Of a stretch of DNA of 64,000 nt, positions 9,233 through 58,450 are shown piece by piece. Under the pieces are notes generated by a model. That model saw nothing but the letters and a program-made list of their open reading frames with translations. It ran no database searches and was not told the origin of the DNA. Made by a program: the position numbers and the translations under genes. Source of the stretch: an uncultured Gammaproteobacteria bacterium (GTDB lineage Bacteria > Patescibacteriota > Patescibacteriia > JACQRZ01). Position 1 is the first letter of the stretch, and every line of letters starts with the position of its first letter. Location of the stretch: NCBI GenBank assembly GCA_964621085.1, contig CAZUKY010000002.1, forward strand, positions 22,637 through 86,636, written 5' to 3'.

Positions 9233-12200
9233 ATGAAACCGTCAGCGCAAAATAATATATTCGCCAAGGGATTCCTCGGAATCCTTTTTGGCGTTTTAGC
9301 TACTGGTATTATCGGTTTCTTTCTCAACGTGGACCCAATTCAGGCCGCTTGGTGTATTACAAAAGGGGAAAAAACGGACTGCATCCCGAACTTCAATTAT
9401 ACAAGCGGCACGCCCGTCAATCAAACCTATCAAATCGAAGGAAAGACAGCTGATCCGAATAAGAAGTGGACGATAACGAACCAGCGTTCCGGCTATTGCA
9501 ATAATAATGTCTGTGTCAACGATCTTGGTCTGCCGAAATTTGAGATGGTTTCCCGAGGAGATGATAACGATACGGATGATAAGATCCAAATACGCCTGAG
9601 GGTCCAGGGCAACACCGGAAGCTATTGGTATGTACGAAAAAATAGTGGATACAGTAACGATGACGGGTACCCGAATACCGGAGATCCCCAAGAAGATCGA
9701 GGTCTTTCAAGGATCCAATACGATGGTATTCAAGGATTAAGAGGCGGGAATTACGCGCAAAATCTTTGTCCCGGGGATAATGGCAGTAGCTGGGACGACA
9801 AATTCGATGTCACTCAGGCAGGCGGATATTTTACTGCGGAAGCACCAGGACCGCGTACGTGCTATGACTCAAAGCTCGTCACTGTAACACATAAGGCGCC
9901 GCAGCAAGTTACAGACCCGAAACATCAGGACACATGGCGAGTGTATGTGTATAGCCCCCAGGATGGGATGATGCACTATACAGATCACACAGACGCTGGT
10001 ACTTATCCGAATGGGTGGAATGCCTATTGGAATAACTGCTGGAAGGGATGGCCATTAAATTGTGAAGGTCGCTGGGAGCAGCCACGCTATCCGGAGTGCG
10101 GCTGCGGCAAAAATGACCCCACTGAAAAGCTCTGTATAAGTTACGGCGTGGCCGGCTTACAATCAAACAATAACTGCTACGACTTCTTTAAAAAGCACAT
10201 CGGCTTTGGGACGAAAACAGAAAATTCTAAAACAGTGACAGAGATGAGGTACCGCGAGGTTACCACGGTGCCCCGATTTAGTCTCGCTACGCTCAACAAT
10301 AAAACTGCATATGCTCCCCATAGAGAAGGTGCGGTATGGCCTGACAATACCTACTTACTCTACTATGATACAAAGAATTTAAATCGAACGGACGGGGCAA
10401 AAAATAAGGTAAAGGCCGTTCAGAACGAGCAGCCGGTTTTTTCCGATCTTAACAAGTGCATTTTTGACCGTAAATTTCTTGAAGTAACACATCATGGTTC
10501 GTACACTGATTATGTTGTTCAAGCGGAAGGACTTCTCGGCAACAGGTTCATCGGATGGCTTTTGTTAAGCCGCGATGAACAAAATGCTATAAAACAAAAG
10601 ATTCTTACGCATGATAAAAGGTTCTACGACAGATCTATAAAAGACGCGCAAAATGAGGAACAAGTAGGGCTGGTACTCATGAGTTTTAAAGCCACCGATG
10701 CATTCAAAAATGACGTCATCAATTCCAAGTTACTAAAAGAGAAGGAGTTTAACGTCATATTCAAGGGAGTATCGCAAACCGTCCAGGCGGCTACCGAAGT
10801 CCCCAAAGAAAAAGATGAGGGCATTGCATGTCGCGCACAACTGCCCTCAGAGTTCGGCATGACCAGTACATATACGTACTTTACTGGTCCAGCTTCAATA
10901 CCGCCTGTTGAGATTCGTTCGTTTCGGGCGACAGCGGTCGGTCCGGATAGTGACTTTGTCGGCGAGACAACACAAGAGCTTACAAGTATTGGAAGCGGCG
11001 CTAATGTTCTCCCCGACCCAACTAATCGATTTTCGTCTGCGCGTGCTGACCTGAGTGCTGGCGCGGGCGAAGTATTGGATCTGCAGGCATACCAGGATAC
11101 CGTCAATCTCAGACTGGAGTGGCAAACTCCCTTTGCCGGCCGGGTACGGATTTTTCAAAAAGATGAGCGGCATGCGACGGCGACGGATCTCAGTCAGTTG
11201 GCGTGTTTGGGTAGATGGGGGGACATCATTGACAGTAATGACCCATGCCCGGCAAGGGGAGAAGTAACATCTGTACGGGAGCTTACGGTTGAGGGACTTC
11301 AGAGCAATAAGAACTATACGTTTTATATCGTCGTCGAAAATAAGCGCGGCGACAGCACCGCGCTACAGCCGACTCAGTGGGCTACAGCCGCCAGACTCGA
11401 CGTTACTGTCCGGCCGGCACCGATTGTCGTCACGAGCGCAACCGCGAAATACGTGAAAGGAAAGGAGAACTGCAAGAGTAATGCATTACCGGGCCAGACC
11501 AATACTCCGACCGAGTGCGCGGAAATTACCTGGAAAGTCGATGGTAGACCGACAGAGATAGTTCTTAAAGCGCCGAAAGGATGGAATAGGACAGTATGGA
11601 CAGACCATACATTCGCTTCGCACTCCTACACGTCAAACGGTGATTTTGACAGATATTTTCCTATTCATACAAGCGAAATCAATCGTTATCGCTCAAATTT
11701 TATCCTCATTGCAAAACGCGGCGATATTACATCGGCCGAGTTTCCTTTTGAGCTTCGAGGCGTGCCGCGCGATCCTATGACAATCGCGGCAGAAGGATGG
11801 AAGGATGGCAACAATGTTCGTGACAAGTCTCTTTTTGAGGCGATTCTCAATACCGACTGCGATGAGTGGTGGCCAGGTTTAGATTTGATATGCAGAGGAA
11901 CGACATTTAGCAGTATTTTTAATATCGCTCGTGAGTCAATATCGTCATCGCTCGCCGGTGCACTGGCAGTAGTGACTGGAGGTGCCGGCGCACTCCTTAA
12001 GCCGATTGTCGATTTTGTTCTAAGGGTTGTTGAGCCGATTGCCTTTGGATTGGTTGGTATGATAGGAAATTTAGTGCAGGCGAACAACGAGAATCTTATT
12101 GACTGGAAGAAGGACATTAATTGGCAGCCATTTCTCGGTTCCTTCGGACTGAGTTTCGCAGTCAATTCATTTACCGGCGTGCTTCAGGCGATCTTTGGAA

Positions 12201-16200: not shown

Positions 16201-19200
16201 CACAGTATCCGTCCGGAACCAATACGGTCGCAATCAAGGTCAACAATCCGCCGACGATCGATCGCATCGAGGTTGCGCCGAGTGCGCGCAAAACGGCGGA
16301 GTACCAGCCGAACGAACCGGTGAGCGTGACGGTCTACGCGACAGATGCGGACGGAAGCATTTCTCAGTCGGAGGTGCGCCTCATTGATGAGAAGGGAGCA
16401 AATCTCCCTATTGCGCTCAAGAAGGCAACACAAGCCGCAACAAAAGACGGCAAGGGAAACACGTATGCCTTCCAGATCGAGTGGCGTCCGACGTGGGCAG
16501 AGGATGGGGCGAATACAAACCAGTCGATGGTCTTTCCGTTCCGCGCGAGCGTGAAAGATAGCGACGGCGCGCAGCCCGAGGTTCTCGAGCAGTCGCGCGT
16601 AATAGTGAAGAACAGCGCACCGACAATTTCGGCTGCGGTAGCAAAGAGCGCGGCGAGCGACGGAAGATATTACGAGGGTGTCGACATTGCGCTTTCCGCG
16701 ACCGTGAAGGACGCCGAAGGAGAGGTTGGCGGCGTTACCTTCTATCGCGAGGAAGATAAAACGGCAATCGGCACTGGCGCGCGCGGCACGGCAGATACCT
16801 TCTCATACCTTTGGAAAAACGCGGCCGCAGGCACGCACCAGCTTTCCGTAAAAGCGATCGATAAAGCCCAACCGCCAAAGACCGCGCGGTATCCGGCAGC
16901 GGCAGGGCAGTTTATTCCGATTAAGGTGCTGGCAAAGCCGTCGATCGTATCCTTTACGGGTCCGACTCCCACCGTCGTTCATCTGAGCGGCGGAAACACA
17001 GGAACGGCGTCAATTCCGTTGGAATTGAAGGTGTCGGATCCGGACGGCATTGTGGCAAAGGCCGAGATCATCGGCAAGGGTGCGATGGCATCCGTGGGCA
17101 GCGGCACATATCGGTTGACGGTGTCGGAAACCGAACAAAAGATCCACTCCTATCGGGCGCGCCTCACCGACGCGATCGGCAGGACGTATGACTCGACGGT
17201 TGTCGCGGTGCGCGTCAACAAGCTTCCGACCGCAGCGATCGTGTCGCCGGCGGAAGCGGCAGTGTATTATCCAGGAACATCAGTCACGGTTACGATTGAC
17301 GCAGCCGATCCTGACGGTTCTGCTGACGGTGCGTCTGCAGGACCGGCAGAGAGCGCTAGATTGCGCGTAACGCATGGCGGCGCGACACAGGAATATCCTG
17401 CGCAGGCAGCGGGCGTGAACCGCTATACTGCAACCTTCAAAGTCGAGACAGAGGGATCTTATTCGCTTACGGCGATTTCCCGCGATAGAGATGACAAAGA
17501 CTCCCCTCTGTCTGCATCGCGGACGATCGTCGCGCAAAATGCAACGCCCGCAGTCAGCGATCTGAAGAGCGTGAAGAGCGTCTATCAGACCGGCGAGAAT
17601 GTAACGGTGTCACTCGATGCGCTGGATGCGGACAGCGGCATGGCGCGCGTCGAGTTCCTGTTGAACGGGAAGCAGACCGGCGGCGGCGCAATTTCTGAGC
17701 GAAAGGTGTCGGTAACAGCTGCCTCTGCTGGAAATGGATGTGCGGATAAGAATAAGAAGTGCACATATACCGCGAATTTCAGCGGCATTCCGGCTGGCGA
17801 GTACTCGGTGCGTGCGGTTGCATTTGACAAGGAGACTCCCGAAAAATTCGCAGCGACCGGAACAGCGGTATCCATGAAAGTTCACCGCACGCCGATCATC
17901 AGCGCATTCTCGGCAGGGAAGCCTCTCTATCAGAAAGGAGAGCGAGTGACTGTTTCGGCTACTGTGCAGGCGGACAACGGCATTGCGGGGAGCGGGTCGG
18001 CTAGTTTTGTGGAGTTCACCGCGAATGGCGCAAGAAAAGCAGTGCGGTATCCATCATCAGGCAACTGTTCGGCGGCATCATGCACGTTCAGCAGTGTCGA
18101 TCTCGGCGTTCTTTCGGACGGTGCGACCTATACGCTTAGCATTCGCGCCGTCGATACGGCAGGGAAGGCGAGCGCGACCGGCCAGTCTGGACAGGCAGCG
18201 ACCGCATCCGTCAAGGTGAATACGCCGCCGGCCGTTTCGGTAGCCGCAGCAGCACAGGGAAGAGATGCGGCAAATCAAGAGATCCGTTCGGATATTCCCG
18301 TAACAATTACGATTGCGCCCCGCGACAGTGACGGACAGATCGCTTCTGTGACACTGACGCAAGAGTACACGCCCTCGGGCTCATCAGCAGCGACGCGAAC
18401 CGTCGAGACGGCAACGCCGGGAAGTCGCCCTTCCGGTTGGGGGTATGACGCGCAGAGCGGAAACTTCACCCGAACGATCACGCCTGCCGCGGGATCGTAC
18501 AGCCTAACAGCTGTCACGCATGACACCGATGGCGCGCCGAGCGCGGTATCGAATACGATCGCGTTTATCGGAAGAAATGAAAAGCCCTCGATTGCGAGTA
18601 TGAATGCCAGCAAGGGCGTCTATCAGCAGGGTGAGTCGATCGGCGTTGAGGTGAAGGCGAAAGATGTTGATAGTGGCATGAAAGAAGTGGCATTTGTTCT
18701 CGGCGGTGATACGCGTGCCGTTCCAGCGACACAAGCGGCTGGCGGCGGTTGCGGTACGCGGGATAAGGAGTGCGTCTACGCGACAAGCTTTTCGAGTCGC
18801 AGTCCCGGCACCTATACGATTACGGCAACTGCTCGCGATACCGTGAATCCGCCTGGAGAGGCGGGCAGGACGGCAAGTTTCCGCGTGAATGCTGCTCCGT
18901 CCGGACGCATCTCTGCTCCCCAAACCGTCCAGATGAATGCAGGATTTACACTGATCCTGGATGCGACCGACAGCGACAGCAAATCGTCCGGTCCGGCAAG
19001 CGCATCAAATGGCATCAAGAGTGTTTCCTTCTCCGGTCCCGGCGTTGACAACGCGAGAATTGCGGTGAGCAACGTGACGGCAGGCGGCGCGCGCTACTCG
19101 TTGGCAGTTTCCGGGCAAGAGGCAGGCGGCCCCAAGTCGTATTCGGCAACAATCACAGACTGGGACGACAATAGCTTTACGACACCCGTCGCCGTTGTCG

Positions 19201-21761
19201 GCGTGCAGCGTCCGCCGATCCTTACGAATATGAAGACAGACAAGCGGATCTACCAAAGAGGAGATGATGTTGTCGTTTCGATTTCCGCCCAGGCCGACAA
19301 TGGGATGGATACGCTTGAGTTTTCAACCGACAGCGGCGCGATTGTAGCGGCGGCGGTAAGTAGTGCGTGCGTATCGCGCGAGTGCTCGTACTCGGCAACG
19401 TTTACGGGGCTTGCTGATGGGCGGTCGTACACGATCACGGCGACGGCAAAGGACCGAGCAGGTAAAATCGCAAGCACGACTGCGCAGATTACAATCAACC
19501 GTCCGCCGATCCTTACGATCCCGACGAGTTACTACGCGTTCCAGCAGGGTGATGATGCGAATGTTTCAGTTACTGTGCAGGCAGACAACGGCATGGATTT
19601 TGTCGAGTTCAAAGCTGCTGGTGCAACCGTGAGAACGAATGCGCCGAGTAACGACTCATGCGTCCGTTCCAGTTGCGAGTTTAGGGGGACATTTAAGGGA
19701 CTGTCAGCAGGACAAACTCATCGAGTCAGCATCACGGCACAGGATAAGGAAAAGAAGACGGCCGCAGGTACGCTTGATATCCGCGTGATAGCGCCGCCTC
19801 AGATTACGAATTTCAAACCCGGCAAGAGCGTGTATCAGGTGAACGAGTCGGTAAGCGCATCATTGGAAGTGCAGGCGGAAAATGGCATGGCGAATGCCGG
19901 CGACTCGCCAGCGATAAAAAACAGCAGCTATGTTGACTTCCAGGTAGACGGCGCAAGTAGGCGAGACTATCCCAGCCGCGGCGACTGCCGATCGGCACCA
20001 TGTTCCGTATCAACAGCGTTCGGTGCGCTCCCCGCAGGTAAAACCTATACACTATCCGCCACGGCGCGCGACAAGGCAGGGAAAGAGGCGGGTGCAACAA
20101 CAAGCGTAAAGGTGAATGCGCCGCCGAGCGGTGGGTTTGTCCGCACGCCCGAGGTTGTCGCAATTGGTAATGCACTCACACTGACGCTCGAGGTTGAGGA
20201 TGGCGACAGCGCGGACGTATCCGCAACATTGTCGGGCCCGTACAACCCGCGGCAGGTCAGCGTCAGCGGCTCAGGGAGGAAAAAAACCTACGTCTTCACG
20301 ACCGACGGCTTGCCGCTGAACACCGCAACGCCGACGACATATTCATATAGCGCGACGATTACAGACAATGAAGGGGGAAGTGCGGCGATCAGCCATGCCG
20401 TGCGCGTCAATCGCGTTCCCACACTCTCGCTCTCTTCATCTCCGACAGGCCCTCGCCTCAGGCAGGGTACGAGCGTCACACTCACAATGACTCCGAGTGA
20501 CCCTGATGGCACTATTTCGAGCGTCGATCTCTCGATCAATGGTGCGACTGAGACAATCACGCGTGCCGGTGATGGTTCATACAAGAAGACGTTTACGCCC
20601 AATCCTGGAGGATACTCGGTATCGGCTTCTGTAAAGGATACCGATGGCGCGCGTGCGACATCGGAGATCAGTTTTAATGTAAATGCAGCGCCGTCGGCGA
20701 AAATTGTAAACACGTCACGCAATGTGTGGAATGGCCAGTCGTTCACGGCACGGCCGACAGAACCGGCCGTCAATCCGGGCGAGTGGATCAGTGTGGACGT
20801 GGAGGCGACAGACTCCGACCGGGGCATTCGGGAGATTACGGCGATATTTCAAGGAGTGACACAGACGCTGTACACGACGGGATACTCGGATTGCGTCGCT
20901 GGTGCCGCCTGCGCAAGACGGTTTGATTTTCATGCTCCCTCCGGCGGGTGGCGGCCCGGAACGCACGAGCTGATCATCGAGACATACGACCGCGAGCCGC
21001 CGGACGCGCGCATGAGCGCACGGGTGAGTAAATCGATCCGCGTGAATGCGCCGCCTGTCGTCTCGTGGTATACGGTCAATATGCCAGGCCGCGGATACGT
21101 CTGGTGGTCATGGTGGGGAGGAGGCGCTCCGCCGGCACAGAGTATGAAGCTGGGTGAGGGCACAGCGTATCTTTACATGACAGCATACGATGATGGCGAG
21201 CTTGATAACAACACGGCATTCTTCGTAATCAATGGGAGTACTATCAAAGCTACGCATTACAGTACAAGTGGACAAACGCGCTATTATTACGCGACATATA
21301 CGCCATCACGGAGCGGACAATACACAATTACCGGACAAGTTGGCGATACGCAAGGCGGACTTACAGTACTTGGTAGAGATAAGGCTTTTGTGCTGACGGT
21401 CATAAATGATCCTCCGGTCGTATCAAATTTCACCCGCAAACTTGTTAGTAATTACCCGTACTGCGTACTCAATCTTTCTATGGAAGCCGCCGATGCTGCA
21501 CCGGGTGTCAGTTGGATGGGATTTTTATCGCTTTATAATTACTGGTCATGGCGATGGCCGGCATGGAGATGGGGTGGAGGGAAGTATGAAGCAAATGTAA
21601 CCTTCACAGAACCAGGAACACATTTGATTTCTGCGCGTGCGGCAGATCATGAAGGGGGATATACTGCGACGAGCGATGCCTACGTGTACATTGGTGACCG
21701 AGGATGGATCTGGGACTGGTGGAGTGGATGGCGTAGAGGCACCTATTGCGCGTATTACTAG
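13218..21761 (+). CDS. Giant secreted surface protein (2847 aa) of tandem bacterial Ig-like (Big-type) domains with Trp-rich C-terminal modules
   Basis: Signal peptide MPVFLRHHRLVFAAGVLALGGFFGVPVLANA. More than 20 repeats of ~100 aa with the pattern VN-x-PP..YQxGExVxVsxxAxDxDSGxxxVxF..NG...G.Y.LTA.A.D, joined by VNAPP / VKNSAP / VNRPP linkers. The last three modules carry W-x-W-x-W motifs (VWWSWWGGG, WSWRWPAWRWGGG, WIWDWWSGWRRG). Confidence 0.6.
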   Translation: MPVFLRHHRLVFAAGVLALGGFFGVPVLANALSVMVATPFRISTPINGTVVTLPEAKVTVPITVVSPGDQYAGVTVTAEIRSASGDVRTLPMSVSSTGAAGTTFSAQWTATTVGSYLITARATQSGYNDRVSAPVRVNIISPSGNASGRISGAFTQSAAKQAGKFDVIPGTDAGAIPGDYRRPRIGPVLPPIFEFSISEPLEQKVMMDVSLYGAEARKAAAENSRFLLDWSANTIARELSAGAQERIPIYRNGAAIVLSVGQVNQNAYIDLYSAPYYDGVADDIEDPIKSVPGFQKLKACPNAVSCIFSLGTAKNGRHIVVARVSANGISRFSYRLVEVRGQNAAPIVAMSLLSDQKPFLLPQKLNIRVDVADADSDRNAAGSPIERVIIFAGDKKIAELEKPTQNINTRTEKFNSLFKDLDFSTYATLQTYAAEWKVESGRHDLRAVAIDTEGMPSDPFVIKDFIATERPKVSDLIVVGKERPSDSGPWIVQEGEEFTLQAKATDDGRIVSMAFTSEQKAAGGGSASPVSGEDNLYRLTVKDRAAGAEYVYAGIAQDNEGVTNDPLPRMTVKMNKKPDIRDLSRDAEEYQPNTKVTLAALAKDIDSALSSVELVDAKTGARIDFKENIGASKNTDYAYRFEWVPPWNEDAKNVDQSAMHSLKLIVRDADGGVREATFPTVTVRNRAPSVTKFSATKAVYQDTEPVVVSLEAIDNDSGMNGVTFVLKNTAGTLSKNFILNAPTRPVSGIDVRRGGVYEAEIKNLAPDSYIITAIASDIASPAKASPEQVVSVRVNAPPTAEGLTVSTPLVQPNVPATFSIIARDSDSDVKSDSRIGSVMLLRDGVEIAVMRLRAGSGDTYEASWTPTLWSPDIPDQAQQYISKGFSVRIEDTDRRRIEKKTDITVTVKNDPPALVPDGKQLTERSVYQKGETVTLSAAVSDADSGVARLQFFANGTAIHTIDNPSQKVSFQWKPTPGSYALTATATDRAKPVKTAQYPSGTNTVAIKVNNPPTIDRIEVAPSARKTAEYQPNEPVSVTVYATDADGSISQSEVRLIDEKGANLPIALKKATQAATKDGKGNTYAFQIEWRPTWAEDGANTNQSMVFPFRASVKDSDGAQPEVLEQSRVIVKNSAPTISAAVAKSAASDGRYYEGVDIALSATVKDAEGEVGGVTFYREEDKTAIGTGARGTADTFSYLWKNAAAGTHQLSVKAIDKAQPPKTARYPAAAGQFIPIKVLAKPSIVSFTGPTPTVVHLSGGNTGTASIPLELKVSDPDGIVAKAEIIGKGAMASVGSGTYRLTVSETEQKIHSYRARLTDAIGRTYDSTVVAVRVNKLPTAAIVSPAEAAVYYPGTSVTVTIDAADPDGSADGASAGPAESARLRVTHGGATQEYPAQAAGVNRYTATFKVETEGSYSLTAISRDRDDKDSPLSASRTIVAQNATPAVSDLKSVKSVYQTGENVTVSLDALDADSGMARVEFLLNGKQTGGGAISERKVSVTAASAGNGCADKNKKCTYTANFSGIPAGEYSVRAVAFDKETPEKFAATGTAVSMKVHRTPIISAFSAGKPLYQKGERVTVSATVQADNGIAGSGSASFVEFTANGARKAVRYPSSGNCSAASCTFSSVDLGVLSDGATYTLSIRAVDTAGKASATGQSGQAATASVKVNTPPAVSVAAAAQGRDAANQEIRSDIPVTITIAPRDSDGQIASVTLTQEYTPSGSSAATRTVETATPGSRPSGWGYDAQSGNFTRTITPAAGSYSLTAVTHDTDGAPSAVSNTIAFIGRNEKPSIASMNASKGVYQQGESIGVEVKAKDVDSGMKEVAFVLGGDTRAVPATQAAGGGCGTRDKECVYATSFSSRSPGTYTITATARDTVNPPGEAGRTASFRVNAAPSGRISAPQTVQMNAGFTLILDATDSDSKSSGPASASNGIKSVSFSGPGVDNARIAVSNVTAGGARYSLAVSGQEAGGPKSYSATITDWDDNSFTTPVAVVGVQRPPILTNMKTDKRIYQRGDDVVVSISAQADNGMDTLEFSTDSGAIVAAAVSSACVSRECSYSATFTGLADGRSYTITATAKDRAGKIASTTAQITINRPPILTIPTSYYAFQQGDDANVSVTVQADNGMDFVEFKAAGATVRTNAPSNDSCVRSSCEFRGTFKGLSAGQTHRVSITAQDKEKKTAAGTLDIRVIAPPQITNFKPGKSVYQVNESVSASLEVQAENGMANAGDSPAIKNSSYVDFQVDGASRRDYPSRGDCRSAPCSVSTAFGALPAGKTYTLSATARDKAGKEAGATTSVKVNAPPSGGFVRTPEVVAIGNALTLTLEVEDGDSADVSATLSGPYNPRQVSVSGSGRKKTYVFTTDGLPLNTATPTTYSYSATITDNEGGSAAISHAVRVNRVPTLSLSSSPTGPRLRQGTSVTLTMTPSDPDGTISSVDLSINGATETITRAGDGSYKKTFTPNPGGYSVSASVKDTDGARATSEISFNVNAAPSAKIVNTSRNVWNGQSFTARPTEPAVNPGEWISVDVEATDSDRGIREITAIFQGVTQTLYTTGYSDCVAGAACARRFDFHAPSGGWRPGTHELIIETYDREPPDARMSARVSKSIRVNAPPVVSWYTVNMPGRGYVWWSWWGGGAPPAQSMKLGEGTAYLYMTAYDDGELDNNTAFFVINGSTIKATHYSTSGQTRYYYATYTPSRSGQYTITGQVGDTQGGLTVLGRDKAFVLTVINDPPVVSNFTRKLVSNYPYCVLNLSMEAADAAPGVSWMGFLSLYNYWSWRWPAWRWGGGKYEANVTFTEPGTHLISARAADHEGGYTATSDAYVYIGDRGWIWDWWSGWRRGTYCAYY

Positions 21762-21772
21762 GGAGTGAATAT

Positions 21773-24016
21773 ATGCAGAGCGGATTACAATGGATTCAAA
21801 AGAATAGCCGTGCTGCCTTTCTTGCACTTTTTGTCGTTGGTGTGCTTGGGGGTACATACCTACTTGTATCGTATCGCGGTACCGGTCCGGAGCAGGGCGG
21901 CCGGGACGGTTTTGTTTTTTTTGATGGTGCCTGGCACCCTGCCTTGAAAGAAGGGGATAGTGCATCTCTGAAACGTCTCTTACCGGTGCGTTTTTCATCA
22001 GCAGGCGGAGATGAGGTTGTCTCGCTATCGGCAGGCGAGGTTCTCAAGGGCAGCATATCCGTCGATTGGCTCTCGCCTGCTGCTCAGAGCATCACTGCCT
22101 CTGTTTTTGACCGGGAAACGTATGCAAAAATCGGTCAGGGAGTTTTTTCTCTCAAGCGAAATGAGATCTCTTCCGAGGGTTTTGTCCCATTTGAGGGGAC
22201 GGTCACGTACAGCGCCGCATCAAGCACGGACGGCTTTCTCCTTTTTGATGCAGGAGCTTCTCTTGCTGGAGAAACGCCAGATGCGCACGAAAAAGCTGAC
22301 GAAAGGGAAATAACAGCATACAGCATTTCGGTACTCCTCATTCCATCCGGGACTAATAAAAAACTTGTTGAGGGATTGAAGCAGTCGAAACAGTATGCAG
22401 CCCAAAATGCGTCAATTCGGATTATTGCATCGGGTGCGGAGGGAGTGGCGTTAGGTGAAGGGGGTGTTGGTGATGAAGCGGATGTCGTGAAGATAGAAAA
22501 AGTCATTGGAACTCAGACAGGAGCGGCAGGAGAACAAATGGTGATCAATTCTGGCGAAATGCTGAGGGGCTTGCTGCGCACTGATATTCTCGCCGCACAA
22601 TCAGTCACCACAGTCGCCGCTACTGTCGTTGACTCAAAAAAATTGAAGACGATCGGAAGTGGGACACTCTCCCTCAAGCGAGGCGAGACCTCTTCTGATG
22701 GCTTTGTCCCCTTTGAAGGCACGGTCACGTATAGCGGCGCATCAAGCACGGACGGATTTCTCCTGTTTGAGGCGGATGGGACTTCTGTCGGATCCAGTAT
22801 TCCGGTGATCCTCATTCCATCCGGCACAGATAGAAAGCTTGTCGAGGGGCTAAAAATGTCAAAGCAATACAACGCCTCTGAGGCGGTGATCCGCATCCTT
22901 CCGGGCAATGAGACGGAGCAGATGCCCGCCGGCCTGAAGCAGTCTTTTTCCGGTTCACTTCGCACTGATATTCTCGCCTCACAATCAGTCACCACAGTCG
23001 CCGCTACTGTCGTTGACTCAAAAAAATTGAAGACGATCGGAAGTGGGACACTCTCCCTCAAGCGAGGCGAGACCTCTTCTGATGGCTTTGTCCCCTTTGA
23101 AGGCACGGTCACGTATAGCGGCGCATCAAGCACGGACGGATTTCTCCTGTTTGAGGCAGGAAAGTTCCGAACACCGCAAGGATCGGAAGCAACTGCGGGG
23201 GGTGCAAGTGTTCCTTTTCCACTTGTCGCTCTTCCCGTGTTGGGTAATCAGCAAAAGCAAGAGCAGTCATCGATCCAGCCGAGTCGCTTTGACACGGCAG
23301 ATGCATCAATCCGCCTCTTCCCCTCAGGGGCAGGCACTGGTGATGGGTCGCAGACTTCTCTTCGGGGAGCTATTCATAAGGATGTGCTTGGTGCGCAACC
23401 CACCCCATCTATTTCTGCGCATATCATAGATCCAAAGACGACCTCCGTGATCGGCAGCGGCTCGTTTTCACTTAAACATGATGAAATCGGGAATGACGGG
23501 TTTGTCCCGTTCGATGGACAGATCACACAGAACGGCTCGCTCGGCTCGGAAGGAATCATGCTTTTCCAGATGGGTGCGGAAAAAGACGCGTTCTATGCCG
23601 CACTCGTTTCATTAGACTCTAAGGGACGAATAGCTGTTGTGCAGACTCGTCTTGAAGAGAAGCCGCCGGAAGCAGCGACTCCTCCGCCTTCCTCATCTTC
23701 ATCATCAGCGAACGCGGCATCTCAACAGGATGCAATAAAACTGGAACGAATTTCTGTCGTGCCGCGTGTCGGGCAAGGACCGCTTACACCGCCGCTTGCG
23801 AAGGATGGGGAGTGCCGTATTACCGGATGCAATAGGGAAGTTTGCGCTGATCGGGATTCACACTCTTCATGCGAACAGTACCTGCCCGAGTATGCATGCT
23901 ACGCAGGCGCCGTCTGCGAGCGCCAAAGCAACGGGGCGTGCGGATGGACACAGACAAAGGAACTCGCGCAATGCATTGAGGGTGTTCAGCGTGCAGGAAC
24001 CCAATCTTCACAGTAG
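21773..24016 (+). CDS. Membrane-anchored protein with four Gmad2-like Ig-fold repeats and a C-terminal Cys-rich module
   Basis: GGAG Shine-Dalgarno sits 8 nt upstream of the ATG at 21773. N-terminal TM (AAFLALFVVGVLGGTYLLV). Four repeats end in GFVPFEGTVTYS/GFVPFDGQITQN...GFLLFEA, a pattern reminiscent of GerM-associated Gmad2 domains. C-terminus is CRITGCNREVCADRD..CEQYLPEYACYAGAVCERQSNGACGW. Confidence 0.5.
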   Translation: MQSGLQWIQKNSRAAFLALFVVGVLGGTYLLVSYRGTGPEQGGRDGFVFFDGAWHPALKEGDSASLKRLLPVRFSSAGGDEVVSLSAGEVLKGSISVDWLSPAAQSITASVFDRETYAKIGQGVFSLKRNEISSEGFVPFEGTVTYSAASSTDGFLLFDAGASLAGETPDAHEKADEREITAYSISVLLIPSGTNKKLVEGLKQSKQYAAQNASIRIIASGAEGVALGEGGVGDEADVVKIEKVIGTQTGAAGEQMVINSGEMLRGLLRTDILAAQSVTTVAATVVDSKKLKTIGSGTLSLKRGETSSDGFVPFEGTVTYSGASSTDGFLLFEADGTSVGSSIPVILIPSGTDRKLVEGLKMSKQYNASEAVIRILPGNETEQMPAGLKQSFSGSLRTDILASQSVTTVAATVVDSKKLKTIGSGTLSLKRGETSSDGFVPFEGTVTYSGASSTDGFLLFEAGKFRTPQGSEATAGGASVPFPLVALPVLGNQQKQEQSSIQPSRFDTADASIRLFPSGAGTGDGSQTSLRGAIHKDVLGAQPTPSISAHIIDPKTTSVIGSGSFSLKHDEIGNDGFVPFDGQITQNGSLGSEGIMLFQMGAEKDAFYAALVSLDSKGRIAVVQTRLEEKPPEAATPPPSSSSSSANAASQQDAIKLERISVVPRVGQGPLTPPLAKDGECRITGCNREVCADRDSHSSCEQYLPEYACYAGAVCERQSNGACGWTQTKELAQCIEGVQRAGTQSSQ
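22571..22770 (+). repeat. Intragenic direct repeat, copy 1 (~200 bp)
   Basis: Matches 22961-23160 with a single mismatch across ~198 nt (gccgcacaa vs gcctcacaa). Confidence 0.85.
22961..23160 (+). repeat. Intragenic direct repeat, copy 2 (~200 bp)
   Basis: Near-identical to 22571-22770 and in the same reading frame. Both copies encode a Gmad2-like repeat. Confidence 0.85.
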
Positions 24017-29772: not shown

Positions 29773-29801
29773 TTGACATGTATGAAGGCACGCGGTATCA
29801 T
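29773..29801 (+). promoter_or_regulatory. Sigma70-type promoter for the rpoBC operon (TTGACA-17-TATCAT)
   Basis: ttgaca(29773-29778), 17 nt, tatcat(29796-29801). Lies at the end of an AT-rich tract, about 265 nt upstream of rpoB. Confidence 0.5.
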
Positions 29802-29936
29802 TCCACATACCCTGCTTTTATCAGATATTCACGGGTAAACATGTTTTTGGGCCACATGTTGAAGTGAGTCGTTCGACTTCACCGGCATTTAATTATTGCC
29901 TGGTGATCGTTTTTTTATCTCTACGACTTTCACAGC

Positions 29937-30045
29937 TGGCGCATTTCCTCGCGTGTTAGGTTGATTCGGGGGTTCCAGCTCCGGTGCTCGACGCTGTATT
30001 CTCAAATACAGCTTACTCCGCTCATCGCTGGCACCTTGAACTGCA
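29937..30045 (+). other. Conserved non-coding element, copy A, within the rpoB leader, enclosed by a 14-bp long-range stem
   Basis: Shares the blocks tggcgcatttcCtcg, ctccggtgctcgacgctgtat, atacagcttactccgctc and ccttgaactgca with 42569-42660. The internal hairpin gctgtat/atacagc has a variable loop. Flanking stem gactttcacagctg (29925-29938) pairs with cagctgtgaaagtc (30048-30061). Confidence 0.6.
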
Positions 30046-30065
30046 CTCAGCTGTGAAAGTCGTGT

Positions 30066-33000
30066 TTGGCAAAAAATTTCCTTCTTAAATTTTTTTCGTC
30101 ACCTATGGGAGCACCGCGCACGTTTTTTACCAAGGAGCATAACGTCATTCCTCTTCCTGATCTGATCGAGGTTCAGAAGAACTCGTACAAGTGGTTTCTG
30201 GACTCGGGACTTCGCCAGCTGCTTGACGAAGTTTCGCCGGTGAAGGATTTCACCGGTCGCGATCTTGAGTTGTCCTTCCTGGATTACTATCTCGACGAGC
30301 CGAAGTTCGACGAGAAGACGAGTTTGTCAAAAAACCTAACGTTTGAGAGCGCGCTGTGGATCCGGACGCGCCTCATGAATCGCCGCACGAACGAGACCAA
30401 GGACCAGGACATCTATCTCGGCGACTTTCCGCTCATGACCGATCGAGGCACGTTTATCATCAACGGTGTCGAACGCGTGGTCGTCTCGCAGCTGATCCGC
30501 TCGGCGGGCGTTTTTTTCACCTCTCAGGTTATGCGCGGATCTGACCGGCGCGCCTACGGTGCCAAGTTGATCCCGAACCGCGGGGCATGGCTCGAGTTCG
30601 AGACGGATGACAACGGCGTCATCTCGGTAAAGATCGATCGCAAGAGAAAGATCGCGGCAACCGCCCTGCTGCGCGCATTCGGATACTCGTCTGACGAGGA
30701 GATCCTCAAGCTTTTTGAAACCGTTGATGTCCATCCCGACATCCGGTACATAGAATCGACCCTTGCAAAAGACGCCTCGACCGATGAAACCACCGGTCTT
30801 GTTGAGGTGTACAAGCGCATTCGTCCCGGCGACTTGGCAACGCCCGATAACGCCCGCTCCCTTATCCATGACATGTTTTTCCGTTTTGATCGGTACGACC
30901 TCAGTCCGGTCGGACGCCATAAGATGAACCAGCGGTTTTCCCTCGGGTTCGACCCCAAAACGAAAGAGGGGCGCGTGCTTCATCGCGAAGACATCGTCTC
31001 GATCATCGCCGAGATTATCTCCTACAACATCTCGCAGCGCGAACCTGATGATATTGACCACCTCGGCAACCGCCGCATCCGCGCAGTTGGCGAGCTGATC
31101 CAGAACAAGTTCAGGGTCGGCTTGGTCCGCATGGAGCGCATCATCAAGGATCGCATGAGTACTCTGGACATCGATACCATCACGCCGACAAAGCTGATTA
31201 ACGCGCGTCCGGTCATCATTGCCGTGAAGGAGTTTTTCATGTCGTCCCAGCTCTCGCAGTTCATGGATCAGACCAATCCGCTGTCGGAGTTGGAGCACAA
31301 GCGGCGCATCTCGGCGCTCGGCCCCGGAGGCCTTTCCCGCGAACGCGCCGGATTCGAGGTGCGCGACGTGCATCCTACCCACTACGGACGCATCTGTCCG
31401 ATCGCCACGCCCGAAGGTCCGAACATCGGACTGGTCGGCCATCTGTCCTCGCACGCCCGCCTGAACGAGTTCGGGTTTATCGAGACGCCGTTCCGAAAGG
31501 TTGTGAAAGAGACCGGAGCGAACGGAGAGACGCGCGCACGGGTGACGAATGATGTCGAATACTTGGACGCCTTCATAGAAGAAAAGCATGTCACGACCGC
31601 CGCGACGACGCCCATCGACGACAAGGGATACTTCGCAACGGAGCGCGCCGAGGTTCGCAAATACGGACAGCCGGCACTAGACGCGTCGGATGCGGTTGAG
31701 TATATGGACGTCGCATCCAATCAGATCGTCTCCGTTTCCACCTCACTGATTCCATTTCTCGAGCATGACGACGCGGCGCGCGCATTGATGGGAACGAATA
31801 TGCAGCGCCAGGCGGTTCCGCTCGTGCGCCCGCAGCGTCCGATCGTCGGCACCGGCGTGGAACACCGCGCGGCCTACGACTCGGGGCGCATGCTGATCAA
31901 TGAAGAAGATGGCACGGTCATCGGGGTAGAGGCGGATCAGATCACCATCCAGTCAGATTCAGAGGAAATCAAGGCATACCCGCTTACGAAATTTTTGCGT
32001 TCAAACGCCTCTACCTGCATTAACCAAAAGCCGATCGTGGCAAAAGGGGATCGCGTAAAGGCGGGGGACGTGCTTGCCGACGGGCCGGCGACGAACGACG
32101 GCGAACTCGCACTCGGACAAAACGTGCTTGTCGGTTTCATGTCGTGGGAACTGGGAAACTACGAAGACGCCATTCTGATTTCCGAGCGCATGGTTCAGGG
32201 AGATCGGTTTACCTCCATTCACATCGAAAACTACATGCTCTCGGTTCGCGATACGAAACTCGGCCCCGAGGTCATCACGCGCGACATCCCCAACATCAGC
32301 GAGGAAAAGCTGAAGGATCTGGATGAGGATGGCATTGTCCGCATTGGCGCAGAGGTGTCATCCGGAGACATTCTTGTCGGCAAAATCACGCCGAAGGGCG
32401 AAACCGAACTCTCGCCCGAGGAAAAGCTGTTGCGCGCAATTTTTGGCGAGAAGGCAAAAGATATCCGCGACTCCTCGCTGTATCTTGAGCATGGCGAACA
32501 CGGCAAGGTGATCGACGTGAAGATCTTCTCGCGCAAAAACGGCGACAAGCTCCCGTCCGGTGTTATCAAGAACGTCCAGGTGACCGTCGCCCATCTTCGA
32601 AAAATCCAAGTCGGCGACAAGATGGCAGGACGCCACGGAAACAAGGGCGTCATCTCCCGCGTCGTGCCGGTCGAGGATATGCCGCTGCTTCCGGACGGCC
32701 GGCCGTTGGACATCGTGCTCTCTCCGTTGGGCGTCATCTCTCGTATGAACTTGGGGCAGATTCTTGAGACGCATCTTGGACTCGCGGCGCGCAAGCTGCA
32801 TATCACGGTCGCGACGCCCGCGCTGGACGGAATCACCGAAGAGACGATCAAAGACCTTCTCGTTCAGGCTGGCTACGAGCCGGACGGAAAGCGACAGCTC
32901 TACGATGGGCGCACAGGCGAGCCGTTCCAGGAAAAGACCGTCGTCGGCAAGATGTATATGATGAAACTGATCCACATGGTCGAGGACAAGATCCACCAGC

Positions 33001-33341
33001 GCTCGATCGGTCCGTACTCGCTTATCACGCAGCAGCCGCTCGGCGGTAAGGCGCAGTCCGGCGGCCAGCGCTTCGGTGAGATGGAAGTCTGGGCGCTTGA
33101 AGCCTATGGCGCCGCGCACACGCTTCAGGAAATTTTGACGATCAAATCCGATGACGTGACCGGCCGGTCGAAGGCATATGAGGCGATCATCAAGGGAGAG
33201 CCGATCCAAAAGGTGAACGTACCGGAGGCATTCAATGTTCTCGTACGCGAGTTGAAGGGACTGTGCCTTGATGTCGAACTAATAAAGGAGACGGGCGACG
33301 ATGATGCACTCGAGGATGAAGAAGAGCGTGCATCCGAGTAG
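30066..33341 (+). CDS. rpoB: DNA-directed RNA polymerase subunit beta
   Basis: Conserved RpoB blocks (..[11 protein letters not shown].., ..[10 protein letters not shown].., ..NMQRQAVPL.., ..[57 protein letters not shown]). 1091 aa. Confidence 0.95.
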
Positions 33342-37471: not shown

Positions 37472-37632
37472 ATCTCGGTATTATCCACGGATCTAAGTAC
37501 TCCATTAAACTCATTCTTCACCCGCCACCCTTCGTCGATGAATAGCACGTATTCACCTCCTTAGGCTTTATTGTTTTCGCTCGAAATTCCAGAGTCATAC
37601 GGGATGAAAATTAATGTAATGGAGTACTAGTA

Positions 37633-41911: not shown

Positions 41912-41934
41912 ATAGAAAATTTCGGTATACGAAA

Positions 41935-41960
41935 AGAGCCCGAATCATCGGGCTCTTTTG
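41935..41960. terminator. Bidirectional rho-independent terminator between recA (+) and efp (-)
   Basis: agagcccga / atca / tcgggctct stem with an A-run before and a T-run after. Confidence 0.7.
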
Positions 41961-41977: not shown

Positions 41978-42544
41978 CTACACGCGCTCCACGTACTCCA
42001 TCGTGTCGGTGTTGATGCGGATGGTGTCGCCTTCTTTAATGAAGAGCGGCGCGGAAACGACGAGGCCGGTTTCCAGTGTCACTGCCTGCGTGACGCCGCC
42101 GGACGAGTCACCCTTGATGCCGGGCGGTGCAGAGACGACTTTTAAGTCAACCTTTGGCGGGAGGCCGACCGTGATGGGACTGCCGTTGAAGGTGAGAATG
42201 TCGGCTGACATGCCCTCCGTAAGAAGCTTCTGTTTTTCGCCGAGCACCTCTTGCTCGATCGCGATCTGCTCGAACGACTCGGTATCCATGAAGTGTATGC
42301 CGGATGCATCGGAGTAGAGATAGTCGGCCTTGCGTCGCTCAAGTTCCGCCTCCTCCACTTTTTCGCCGGCCTTAAAGCTGTACTCAAGGACCTTGCCATT
42401 GATGAGGTTGCGGAGTTTGGTTTGCATGACCGGCTTTCGCTGCTGCATGCGGACGAAGTTTGCCGTGAGAACCTGGTAGGGCTCGCCGTCAAAGAGGATG
42501 GTGAGGCCTACCTTGATGGAGTTAAGAGAGGGAAGAACAGCCAT
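41978..42544 (-). CDS. efp: Elongation factor P
   Basis: MAVLPSLNSIKVGLTILFDGEPYQVL..KPVMQTKLRNL.. is typical EF-P. 188 aa. Confidence 0.9.
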   Translation of the reverse strand: MAVLPSLNSIKVGLTILFDGEPYQVLTANFVRMQQRKPVMQTKLRNLINGKVLEYSFKAGEKVEEAELERRKADYLYSDASGIHFMDTESFEQIAIEQEVLGEKQKLLTEGMSADILTFNGSPITVGLPPKVDLKVVSAPPGIKGDSSGGVTQAVTLETGLVVSAPLFIKEGDTIRINTDTMEYVERV

Positions 42545-42568
42545 AGTTACTTTTTCGGCTTTTCATAT

Positions 42569-42660
42569 TGGCGCATTTCTTCGTTGACGTCTCCGGTGCT
42601 CGACGCTGTATGAGGAATACAGCTTACTCCGCTCCTCCTCGTCGTCGCCTTGAACTGCAT
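42569..42660 (+). other. Conserved non-coding element, copy B (rpsR-efp intergenic)
   Basis: Same four conserved blocks as 29937-30045 and the same gctgtat/atacagc hairpin with a different loop (gagga vs ttctca). Plus-strand orientation matches copy A although the flanking genes are on the minus strand. Confidence 0.6.
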
Positions 42661-42675
42661 CCAATCTGAGAAGCC

Positions 42676-42900
42676 TTATTGAATTACAAATGGGAGGAGC
42701 GCCATGGTACGCGCGCGGCGGATGGCAAGCGATAGTTTTCGCTGATGCTGCGCGCAGCAGCCGTTTCGGCGCCGTGGCGCGATTTTTCCGTACGAGGAGA
42801 TGAAGCGACGAAGGAGAGTTGCGTCCTTGTAGTCTATTTCGACAGAGGTATGCGTGCAGAAGTAGCACTCTTTCGGCACGATTTTCTTAGGTTTTTGCAT
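42676..42900 (-). CDS. rpsR: 30S ribosomal protein S18
   Basis: ..[60 protein letters not shown]. Confidence 0.9.
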
Positions 42901-43359: not shown

Positions 43360-43363
43360 ATTT

Positions 43364-43400
43364 TTGGCTTATTAGCTTATTAGCTTCTTGGCTTATTAGC
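43364..43400. repeat. Short tandem repeat (ttattagc / ggcttattagc units)
   Basis: Read in the 44-nt spacer between ssb and rpsF. Confidence 0.5.
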
Positions 43401-43403
43401 TTT

Positions 43404-44186
43404 TTACAATATATCATCTTTCAGGATCTCATCGAGCTTTTTGTCCAGGTCTTCGTAACTGACCCGTTCATCTTTTTTCTTTTTTGGGGCCGTGTCGGTC
43501 GCTGACTCGTCTGACGCCTCTGCTTCTTTGGTCGCAACGGCCACTCCTGACTCTTCCGGCGCTGCCACTGCGGCAGCAGGTGTTTGCGCCTCTGCCGTTT
43601 CAAGTCGCTCTTCGTCAACAGTAGTCGATGGTGCAGCTGCAGTAATGGGCTGATCCGTCGATGCATCATCGTGCGTCGGCGCTGCCGGGACGCTCATCGC
43701 GGGTGCCGCGTCGCTTTCTTCAGTTGCAACTGGAGACGTCTCCTCGCGTGTCACTGCGGCAGCGTCTGATGCCTGCTCGGCGGTCGCTGGGGTTGCCGCA
43801 TCGGGTTCGCTCGCGAACACGTCGCGAAGCTCAGCCGGAATCTCGGACTTCGTGCGCGCTTCGGCCTCGGGTCGTGCGTGGAACTGCTTCGGCGCGCCAA
43901 CCTCGTCCCGCTTGGTGATCAGGTGTCGCAGCAGATCTGCCGAGAGGCCAAGCTCGCGATCGATTTTTTTGACGATCTCCGGACTTCCGTCGAACTCATG
44001 CACGACATAATAACCGTAATGCAGGTGCTTGATCGGATAGGCGAGCTTCCGTCGCCCCATGTGCTGCGTGTAATGGATAGCGCAGCCGTTTTTTTTCAAG
44101 AGGTCATCGATTTTTCCCGTGACGCTCTCGAGCTCGCCCTCAGCGAATTTGCCGCTGACAATCGTGAGAAGTTCGTAGTGGTTCAT
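43404..44186 (-). CDS. rpsF: 30S ribosomal protein S6 with long acidic, low-complexity C-terminal extension
   Basis: MNHYELLTIVSGKF..RRKLAYPIKHLHYGYYVVHEFDG.. S6 core (~100 aa) followed by ~160 aa of Ala/Glu/Thr/Pro-rich extension. Confidence 0.85.
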   Translation of the reverse strand: MNHYELLTIVSGKFAEGELESVTGKIDDLLKKNGCAIHYTQHMGRRKLAYPIKHLHYGYYVVHEFDGSPEIVKKIDRELGLSADLLRHLITKRDEVGAPKQFHARPEAEARTKSEIPAELRDVFASEPDAATPATAEQASDAAAVTREETSPVATEESDAAPAMSVPAAPTHDDASTDQPITAAAPSTTVDEERLETAEAQTPAAAVAAPEESGVAVATKEAEASDESATDTAPKKKKDERVSYEDLDKKLDEILKDDIL

Positions 44187-58070: not shown

Positions 58071-58450
58071 ATGAGATTTTATGGTTTAGTCGCGCGCATT
58101 TCCTGTTGGGAAAGGCGCTGCGGTCGGGCCAGTTTTGCGCGAAAGCTTTGGGATCGGGCCGCGTGAGAATGGATAATGAATAGAGAAACAAAATGCAGGC
58201 GTATTTCCTCTGAGACGTCCGAGGGCGAGGAAGGTGCGAGGGACAAAGCGACAAGCTCTTTATTTCCCTGTTCCTTATTCATTTTTTTGCGCATGCTCGG
58301 TCGGGATCCTATGCTTTTTGGGCAAGAGTTTTTCAACTCTCAGCCGTATCAGGCACAACCGCACGTCTGTATATACGCACTCAAGCCGTCGGCAAGTTTC
58401 TAGCGACGAGCTATTTCTTTCATGCCTTAAGGCGGGGAATGCGAGAAACC

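Follow-up and report, generated by a model that had tools for sequence, protein, structure and literature searches.

An interspersed family of imperfect palindromes of about 120 bp in Parcubacteria

Two copies of a non-coding element, designated A and B, occur in a 64,000-nt stretch of DNA (hereafter the window; contig CAZUKY010000002.1, from an uncultured bacterium), one in the leader of rpoB and the other in the spacer between rpsR and efp. Both belong to a previously undescribed family of interspersed imperfect palindromes, ~120 bp in length, in the Parcubacteria (Patescibacteria/candidate phyla radiation, CPR). Copies A and B are joined in this family by 18 more distinct copies from Uhrbacteria-, Moranbacteria-, and other Parcubacteria-like contigs, and full-text literature searches on CPR/Patescibacteria RNA motifs, intergenic hairpin repeats, and the core sequence found no description of it. 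The reading favoured here, tentatively and at a little under even confidence, is that of a new interspersed palindromic DNA repeat resembling the ERIC and REPIN elements, with a hairpin and core that would function in its own propagation or for a partner acting at the DNA level.

Identification of the family

Four blocks common to A and B had been claimed in a sequence-only reading of the window, and pattern matching confirms all of them. Block 1 (TGGCGCATTTCYTCG) lies at 29937–29951 in copy A and 42569–42583 in copy B; the 21-mer CTCCGGTGCTCGACGCTGTAT, at 29979–29999 and 42591–42611, occurs at only these two sites in the window and gave no match in 100 shuffles; the 18-mer ATACAGCTTACTCCGCTC, at 30006–30023 and 42617–42634, has no other site in the window; and block 4 (CCTTGAACTGCA) occupies 30034–30045 in A and 42648–42659 in B. 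For copy B, described in that reading as spanning 42569–42660, the start stands and the end does not, block 4 stopping at 42659. The other particulars hold: the hairpin GCTGTAT/ATACAGC is the same in both copies while the loops are unlike (TCTCAA in A and GAGGA in B), the spacers between blocks 1 and 2 measure 27 nt (A) and 7 nt (B), both copies share the plus orientation while their adjoining genes differ in strand, and the 14-bp stem said to enclose copy A is exact and extends to 16 bp (29923–29938 with 30048–30063).

Outside the window, a scan of 185,579 species representatives for the exact 21-mer yielded a single genome, a Parcubacteria metagenome-assembled genome (L001). A degenerate pattern, in which the two arms of the apical stem could each change by transitions independently and the loop was free, retrieved 17 metagenome loci; 16 are clearly homologous and represent 13 distinct sequences, and the seventeenth (L020) was rejected as a chance match. 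Covariance model R1, built from 16 sequences, added four diverged copies (L001 6461–6604, L027 7486–7607, L024 7694–7812, and L031 18324–18447). A search for further copies, advised by the earlier reading, has thus produced 18 distinct ones from database scans.

Copy A scores 108.8 bits (E 7e-25) and copy B 106.3 bits (E 3e-24) with R1, which, run with its filters off, detects A and B and no third copy in the 64-kb window. A supposed echo of block 1 at 58097 falls away: it requires three mismatches, a level at which 28 matches are seen against 28.6 expected, and the model does not see it with filters off. An exact CCTCGAACTGCA at 55894 was likewise set aside, lying inside a 507-aa open reading frame (ORF) resembling RNase Y. 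R1 is strand-specific, returning ~100–126 bits on the forward strand versus ~15 on the reverse, and has zero matches in 786 kb of unrelated viral contigs. Pattern scans of viral contigs gave only chance matches in G+C-rich coding DNA, and a looser variant-core pattern gave chance matches among those listed, none of which R1 confirmed. At the gathering threshold, Rfam matched only tRNA and rRNA in the window and the 17 loci. The Rfam comparison proposed in the earlier reading, made on both copies at E up to 10, gave two noise matches (11–12 bits against thresholds of 50–60), and the element matches no Rfam family.

Two copies each are present in the window, L001, L024, and L027, and the typical density where the element is present is 1–2 copies per 10–60 kb. 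Host contigs range from 41% to 54% G+C and include Uhrbacteria-like and Moranbacteria-like sequences. The parts of copies A and B, in the terms explained in the next section, are as follows.

29922..30064, plus strand: copy A, full element, 143 nt (R1 score, RNA and DNA folds)
29923..29938, plus strand: copy A, 5′ arm of the outer stem, 16 bp perfect with 30048–30063 (sequence, folds)
29937..29951, plus strand: copy A, P1 5′ block TGGCGCATTTCCTCG, partner 30034–30047, with conserved mismatches
29975..29979, plus strand: copy A, P2 5′ arm CCAGC, partner GCTGG at 30027–30031 (alignment A4)
29980..29992, plus strand: copy A, core strand X, TCCGGTGCTCGAC (alignment A4)
29993..30012, plus strand: copy A, apical hairpin P3 (GCTGTAT, loop TCTCAA, ATACAGC)
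30013..30026, plus strand: copy A, core strand Y, TTACTCCGCTCATC (family consensus TTACTNCGCTCCTC)
30034..30045, plus strand: copy A, P1 3′ block CCTTGAACTGCA
30048..30063, plus strand: copy A, 3′ arm of the outer stem (sequence, folds)
42557..42675, plus strand: copy B, full element, 119 nt (R1 score, RNA folds, ORFs)
42592..42604, plus strand: copy B, core strand X
42605..42623, plus strand: copy B, apical hairpin P3 (GCTGTAT, loop GAGGA, ATACAGC)
42624..42637, plus strand: copy B, core strand Y, TTACTCCGCTCCTC

Anatomy and covariation

Every copy forms a rod-like hairpin of ~120 nt, and on either strand A and B each fold as a single long, imperfect hairpin. As RNA, copy A is predicted at −64.2 kcal/mol (z −6.3) on the plus strand and −62 on the other, and copy B at −42.8 kcal/mol on the plus strand and −41.4 on the minus strand, with z-scores of −3.7 to −6.5 over both copies and strands. 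As DNA, copy A folds at −32.3 kcal/mol (z −5.8; −32 to −36 over the strands) and copy B at −18 to −21 kcal/mol.

The rod begins with an outer stem of 10–20 bp that is free in sequence and ends in roughly NNCTT/AAGNN; in copy B it is made by 42557–42568 with 42664–42675, with bases unlike those of A (GGCTTTTCATAT... with ...CTGAGAAGCC), a stem that the sequence-only reading does not mention. It is followed by P1, in which GGCRCATTTCTTCG pairs with CCTCGAACTGCA; this helix is semi-conserved, with conserved mismatches, and has compensatory variants (TTC/GAA to TCC/GGA and GCA/TGC to ATA/TAT). P2, of 5–6 bp, is unlike in almost every copy and covaries in every column. The core consists of strand X (TCCGGTGCTCGAC), a 7-bp apical hairpin (P3) with a loop of 4–8 nt, and strand Y (TTACTNCGCTCCTC). 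Strands X and Y themselves form a helix, GGTGC of X pairing with GCTCC of Y around a U·U, with compensatory changes in L001b, L027b, and L031. X is invariant in 16 of the 19 copies of alignment A4, although most copies came from patterns containing X and none of the four found by the model only keeps it intact. Size variants occur: copy A is longer by 20 nt on the 5′ side of P2, and L001b has an additional 34-nt hairpin inside Y.

A covariation test, again advised by the sequence-only reading, was made on the 19 aligned sequences. Standard pairs fill 92.4% of pair cells versus 67% in shuffles, the covariation score is 0.683 versus 0.211 in shuffles, and both partners have changed in 32 of the 38 pairs; when the partners are slid by 1–3 columns, pairing falls to 28%–45%. 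At P3, half of the family has switched from U-A to C-G, splitting 8:8 at two pairs, and this is genuine covariation because the search pattern let both arms change independently. Such massive compensatory change across 18 further homologues strongly supports the earlier view of A and B as a structured element and not a recent local duplication.

In L024b and L027b, the core strands look exchanged, as if the module had been flipped (type 2). The idea of a true module inversion was downgraded, as X (CCGGTGCTCG) and Y (CCGCTCCTCG) are alike and two flipped base pairs suffice; it is also undercut by the L154 orthologue of L027b, which is of ordinary type. Terminal inverted repeats are limited to the weak NNCTT/AAGNN at the ends, and scaffolds are on average 53% identical from copy to copy.

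A helix selected as RNA accepts G·U much more readily than A·C. Among the stem mismatches of the family, G·U outnumbers A·C by 31 to 20 overall and by only 17 to 15 once three P1 pair columns are left out; A·C is thus nearly as frequent as G·U, which is the spectrum expected of random transitions in a DNA palindrome. Nor does the spectrum follow the direction of transcription, being equal in sense and antisense copies. On the X-to-Y strand, 14 G·U pairs fall in two P1 columns; for other conserved P1 positions, pairing would be better with the opposite strand as the folded one. Quasi-palindrome template switching can copy a change from one arm of such a structure to the other. Covariation alone cannot separate RNA from DNA, since frequent compensatory changes are also a feature of mobile REPIN hairpins (PMC3116915).

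Genomic setting and orientation

The RpoC protein of the window is 70%–73% identical to Candidatus Uhrbacteria proteins, and the window is therefore assigned to an Uhrbacteria-like member of the Parcubacteria. Four features define the setting of its two copies.

29773..29801, plus strand: promoter-like site TTGACA-17-TATCAT upstream of copy A (11/12 consensus matches)
30106..33341, plus strand: rpoB, start placed at ATG 30106 on the basis of the N-terminal sequence (TTG 30066 in the mechanical ORF)
41978..42544, minus strand: efp (ORF; orthologues carry EF-P Pfam domains)
42676..42900, minus strand: rpsR (ORF)

Copy A lies downstream of the promoter-like site and 42 nt before the probable rpoB ATG, which places it in the rpoB leader in sense orientation; similar promoter-like sequences were read by eye upstream of rpoB in the related loci L010 and L011. 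Copy B fills the rpsR-efp spacer, its 3′ end abutting the rpsR stop codon and its 5′ end lying 12 nt from the efp start codon, and since both genes are on the minus strand, it is antisense to its host operon. No promoter-like site was found upstream of copy B on the plus strand, and the upstream plus-strand gene recA ends with a hairpin and T-run that reads as its own terminator. Transcription of the plus strand of copy B thus appears unlikely from the sequence, and its reverse complement would certainly be transcribed. A terminator-like site (hairpin plus T-run) was found at neither copy.

Across the family, the gene neighbours (rpoB, efp, ddl, obg, two pilin genes, ftsW/rodA, yebC, ruvC, iscU-ferredoxin, dusB, ftsA on both sides, and rpmB) have nothing in common. 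All settings are transcribed non-coding gaps, namely mRNA leaders, operon spacers, 3′ untranslated regions (UTRs), a 23S-5S spacer, and tRNA clusters, and the copies nearly fill their spacers, often abutting or overlapping start or stop codons. Measured against the transcription unit around them, 13 copies are sense, five antisense, and two ambiguous, and the antisense copies are as intact as the sense ones (113–120 bits with R1; copy B 106). Four copies adjoin stable RNA genes—one in the 23S-5S spacer, one inside a tRNA cluster, and two upstream of tRNAs—and all four are sense.

The X-to-Y strand is the G-rich strand of the contig in 15 of 18 scorable copies, some of them antisense to the adjoining genes, but not in L001b, L024b, and L031. 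The window as a whole has positive GC skew, and all three of its tRNAs are on the plus strand. No promoter or terminator common to the element ends was found, and the idea of a promoter carried by the element was dropped, the sporadic hexamer matches seen by eye not being common between copies.

Several side observations attach to these settings. In L024 (1–642; also L015 and L025), the element lies 14 nt after the 3′ end of the 23S rRNA and 119 nt before the 5S rRNA, on the same strand, in a spacer of 252 nt. The adjoining 5S rRNA begins with UCCGGUGC, identical to the first 8 nt of X, most likely by coincidence. The rpoB leaders of two relatives (L010 about 6640–6690; L011 about 6580–6625) contain, ~40 nt ahead of the start codon, an attenuator-like hairpin with a T-run after it; the sequence immediately 5′ of copy A in the window is also a T-run (29911–29917), so the element may have inserted next to a signal of this kind. 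At 41928–41958, where recA and efp converge, a hairpin (AAAAGAGCCCGA...TCGGGCTCTTTT) with A/T-run flanks reads as a bidirectional terminator, and L031 has its equivalent at about 18280–18310.

Gain, loss, and exchange among relatives

R1 finds no element at the rpoB leader or the rpsR-efp spacer in eight related rpoBC-efp loci; loci without it at these sites include L010, L011, and L029–L033. Compared with L010 and L011, the window has ~160 nt more in its rpoB leader, a difference that approximates the length of the element. The rpsR-efp spacer measures 10 nt in the closest relative (L029), 19 nt in L031, and 75 nt in L010, where it holds an unrelated hairpin. In L031, a copy oriented the other way flanks efp at its opposite end, within the efp 3′ UTR and just before a separate canonical terminator. 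The suggestion of a regulatory RNA or small RNA (sRNA) proper to the rpoB leader and rpsR-efp spacer is not supported, given the absence of the element from the same spacers in these eight loci, the unrelated genes and both orientations seen across the copies, and the lack of a promoter-like site upstream of copy B on the plus strand. As a separate observation, the rpsR-efp spacers of L010 (18831–18905) and L011 (21736–21825) lack the element yet have unrelated hairpins, that of L010 being built of repeated AGCTTGTAG/AGCTAC units, and it may be that some hairpin is generally favoured in this spacer.

Loss can be followed in a Moranbacteria-like locus, L027, which has two full copies, one in the ftsA 5′ UTR and one between ftsA and the next gene. 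In L154/L155, whose FtsA is 91% identical to that of L027, only the 3′ half of the ftsA-leader copy is kept: the 5′ arm is deleted and X is degenerate, with Y, P1 3′, and the outer 3′ arm intact. The second, ftsA-downstream copy is missing from L154/L155; the corresponding spacer of L154 was considered as a second remnant and rejected as too dissimilar to L027a. Relatives at 88% FtsA identity and below have neither copy. The remnant and the absences together indicate that the element was ancestral there and is being lost by deletion, and hence that it is dispensable.

An extended −10 promoter-like motif, TGTGGTATA(A/C)T, is conserved before ftsA in all Moranbacteria-like loci; in L027 and L154, it is separated from the ftsA start codon by the element or its remnant. 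The motif is located as follows.

L027 7431–7441: ftsA TGTGGTATA(A/C)T motif
L154 8181–8192: ftsA TGTGGTATA(A/C)T motif
L156 about 2960–2970: ftsA TGTGGTATA(A/C)T motif
L157 about 5790–5800: ftsA TGTGGTATA(A/C)T motif
L158 about 9960–9970: ftsA TGTGGTATA(A/C)T motif

Two copies from the same metagenome (Ga0268298) with different flanks, L012 2363–2484 and L027 7486–7607 (L027b), have arms that are 98% identical over ~66 nt and centres (P2 plus core) that are entirely different, and no simple mutational path between them was found. Read from sequence, this mosaic suggests exchange or conversion between copies.

Interpretation

On the favoured reading, that of an interspersed palindromic DNA repeat, the family would spread, or would once have spread, as a non-autonomous DNA element whose hairpin forms in single-stranded DNA, the lagging-strand template being its most likely site because of the bias to the G-rich strand. 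The asymmetric conserved core would be the recognition site of a trans-acting enzyme or host factor, and selection on propagation, arm-to-arm template correction, and gene conversion would together keep the arms complementary. As a by-product, transcribed copies would put a very stable hairpin into host RNA: the one 42 nt ahead of the rpoB ATG is predicted at about −64 kcal/mol, and the one that stops 12 nt short of the efp ATG at about −41 kcal/mol. By analogy with ERIC and Correia elements, such hairpins probably affect the processing, stability, or translation initiation of the host RNA.

The family has what an interspersed repeat generally shows, namely multiple dispersed copies at non-orthologous sites with gain and loss between relatives, and the small non-autonomous repeat family that the sequence-only reading listed among its options is now preferred. 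A DNA repeat is further supported by the presence of both orientations within operons, the empty orthologous sites, the truncated remnant, the DNA-like mismatches, the mosaic of L012 and L027b (as exchange between repeats would produce), and the size variants formed by internal insertion.

A number of observations weigh against this reading. Target-site duplication is not seen, the borders of 16 copies (flanks read by eye) having no direct repeats, and no transposase or candidate mobilising gene is present in the window or was seen in the annotated loci; nor does the window hold a parent insertion sequence. The outermost ends are only weakly conserved, whereas miniature inverted-repeat transposable elements are conserved precisely at their ends. 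Copies of the same genome are not especially similar (the scaffolds of A and B are 65% identical, and both resemble copies from other genomes more than they do one another), and nothing points to recent bursts. The core is essentially invariant across hosts of 41%–54% G+C whose RpoC proteins are only ~60%–70% identical, and such invariance would be expected of a site that a conserved host factor reads, more than of selfish DNA. Several copies lie in sense orientation inside rRNA/tRNA transcription units, which fits an RNA role, and the strand bias is equally expected of co-directionally transcribed RNA genes. Finally, the sample is 20 copies, most of them found via a pattern demanding an intact core.

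The principal alternative, possible though rather unlikely, is a strand-specific functional RNA module carried in many transcripts, for example as a processing or stability signal, whose X/Y loop binds a conserved protein or RNA partner or is cleaved and whose helices are mere scaffolding, or else an excised stable RNA of ~120 nt. An invariant unpaired core, covarying helices, and free loops make up the classical pattern of structured RNA; X:Y compensation occurs, and the covariation is of the kind generally looked for in a common secondary structure. The sense orientation of 13 of 18 oriented copies and of all four copies near stable RNA genes, the 14 G·U pairs of the two P1 columns, the strand-specificity of R1, and an orientation co-directional with GC skew, like that of rRNA/tRNA genes, point the same way. 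A functional RNA sits less well with the five intact antisense copies inside operons, with copy B (without an upstream promoter-like site and next to the terminator-like recA hairpin), and with the lack of any promoter or terminator common to the element ends or any Rfam match at E up to 10. Outside the three P1 columns, moreover, G·U is not favoured over A·C, and in close relatives, the element is dispensable, truncated, or absent.

A bolder version, and one judged unlikely, would make the family a new functional class of folded nucleic acid in the Parcubacteria, with an X/Y loop that is read by a partner or is catalytic. It would be embedded in rRNA, tRNA, and housekeeping transcripts as a processing or quality-control signal, or would act as a mobilisation hairpin in replication-coupled single-stranded DNA.

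It is improbable that the element is a duplex DNA site or extruded cruciform bound by a chromosomal protein in a polar replication or chromosome role (Ter-, KOPS-, or parS-like). This would account for the orientation with GC skew in 15 of 18 copies, its independence of gene orientation, the invariant core, and the low to moderate copy number. Against it, a loop of 4–8 nt and tolerated insertions of 20–34 nt are hard to reconcile with duplex recognition of fixed geometry, the freedom of helix sequence provided that pairing holds points to a folded single strand, and close relatives manage without such sites.

Slightly less probable still is a family of trans-acting sRNA genes with their own promoters, such as a CPR counterpart of 6S or another housekeeping RNA. 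The rod with a conserved central bubble, the mostly co-directional orientation with replication, and the wide occurrence in Parcubacteria would suit it. An estimated one extra copy per 35–40 kb in positive contigs, against none in ~210 kb of relatives' loci, is however not housekeeping-like; common promoters or terminators are lacking, and copies abut start or stop codons inside operons. The apical stem of only 7 bp is also too short for a 6S-like promoter mimic, and the Rfam 6S and SRP families are unmatched.

The least probable reading, a special case of the RNA alternative to which very little weight is given, is a new class of self-cleaving ribozyme or ligand-binding aptamer. It draws on the small conserved core between two helices, the intercistronic positions, and the second core arrangement of L024b and L027b, which recalls permuted hammerhead and twister ribozymes; that permuted form is reachable by two base-pair flips, though, and the L027b orthologue in L154 is ordinary. 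The antisense copies and the mismatch spectrum also speak against it, as does the absence of the consistent gene association needed for an aptamer.

Other candidates were discarded outright: a cis-regulatory leader or riboswitch, for want of recurrent gene association at orthologous positions; an intrinsic terminator, there being no G+C-rich hairpin plus T/U run at A or B; 6S, SRP, 5S, Y RNA, T-loop, K-turn, and sarcin-ricin-like motifs (by inspection), which have no model support, the apical loop being variable and not GNRA; a LexA-type operator (CTGT...ACAG), whose spacing varies from N9 to N12 between copies and is not that of a fixed-geometry duplex site; a mini-ORF GTG-CTC-GAC-GCT-GTA, which reads MLDAV-stop in B versus a 34-aa ORF in A and is not conserved; and a guide RNA with X or Y complementary to rRNA, for which the 23S rRNA of L025 offers no convincing target.

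Other features of the window

In the ssb-rpsF spacer (43361–43406), an 8-nt unit (TTATTAGC and variants) is present in five overlapping copies. The adjoining gene for ribosomal protein S6 (43404–44186) encodes 260 aa, compared with 204–228 aa in relatives, with a long, acidic, alanine/threonine-rich C-terminal extension. The rpoC-ftsK gap (37496–37628) contains a 29-nt inverted repeat, 76% complementary and with its arms 75 nt apart, that is unrelated to the element. A 200-nt direct repeat (22574–22773 and 22958–23157, 99% identical; third copy at 22052–22251, 62%) sits in a 756-aa ORF (21746–24016), and the adjoining ORFs, of 1058–2847 aa, are also internally repetitive.

Significance and comparison with known systems

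CPR genomes are about 1 Mb in size and have almost no spare DNA, and their non-coding elements are little known. An element present ahead of rpoB, ftsA, and efp as well as in rRNA spacers and tRNA clusters, with a core invariant across genera, would be either a new persistent genomic parasite of minimal genomes or a common functional signal. It explains otherwise puzzling long leaders and spacers and marks strong hairpins that probably influence the expression of essential genes; its strand bias with GC skew is a testable link to replication, and R1 is a ready covariance model for annotating Parcubacteria genomes.

The Rfam leader families (Lacto-rpoB, 6S, and ribosomal-protein leaders) offer some likeness, in that copy A lies in an rpoB leader and has covarying helices and conserved loops, but no model matches and the element has no fixed gene association or orientation. 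6S RNA is a rod of about 180 nt with a central bubble and long flanking stems.

Single-strand transposons of the IS200/IS605 type and their miniature derivatives carry small hairpins that, with flanking conserved bases, are recognised in single-stranded DNA, and they make no target duplication and show replication-biased orientation. The present family shares the lack of target duplication and the strand bias (15 of 18 copies on the G-rich strand); IS200/IS605 elements, however, have two separate subterminal hairpins, whereas there is one long rod here, and no TnpA/TnpB gene was seen near any copy.

Correia/NEMIS elements of Neisseria (CREE) have conserved 26-bp terminal repeats and a TA duplication. 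At 100–155 bp, with inverted-repeat arms and a conserved core, they resemble the present element in build; their 26-bp terminal repeats, TA duplication, and core IHF site were not seen in it. CREE are reported to be co-transcribed with neighbouring genes and to form hairpins that bind RNase III and can alter the expression of adjacent genes (PMC2649163).

REPINs are dispersed extragenic hairpins of ~100 nt, predicted in single-stranded DNA or mRNA, in which compensatory changes are common (PMC3116915), and they are reported to persist while individual copies decay (bioRxiv 10.1101/2022.05.22.493013). The element is like them in its hairpin with compensatory changes, its dispersed extragenic copies, and its persistence with decay. 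It differs in that REPINs have mirror-image conserved 16-mers at both ends and hundreds of copies, whereas here conservation is central and asymmetric and the copy number low. The element contains no GTAG-type REP, and no RAYT turned up in any locus, a search that did not extend to whole genomes.

ERIC elements are imperfect palindromes of ~120–127 bp, intergenic yet transcribed, found in either orientation at low to moderate copy number, with longer variants formed by internal insertion and with conservation across genera at differing positions, and in each of these respects, the element is ERIC-like. ERIC is conserved over its whole length and belongs to a different phylum, whereas conservation in the present family is confined to the asymmetric centre and part of P1, with arms that covary freely; the likeness described here is one of size, location, and behaviour. 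Although it shows none of the defining sequence features of ERIC, REPIN, or Correia elements, it is these three that the element most resembles in its size, palindromic shape, and behaviour.

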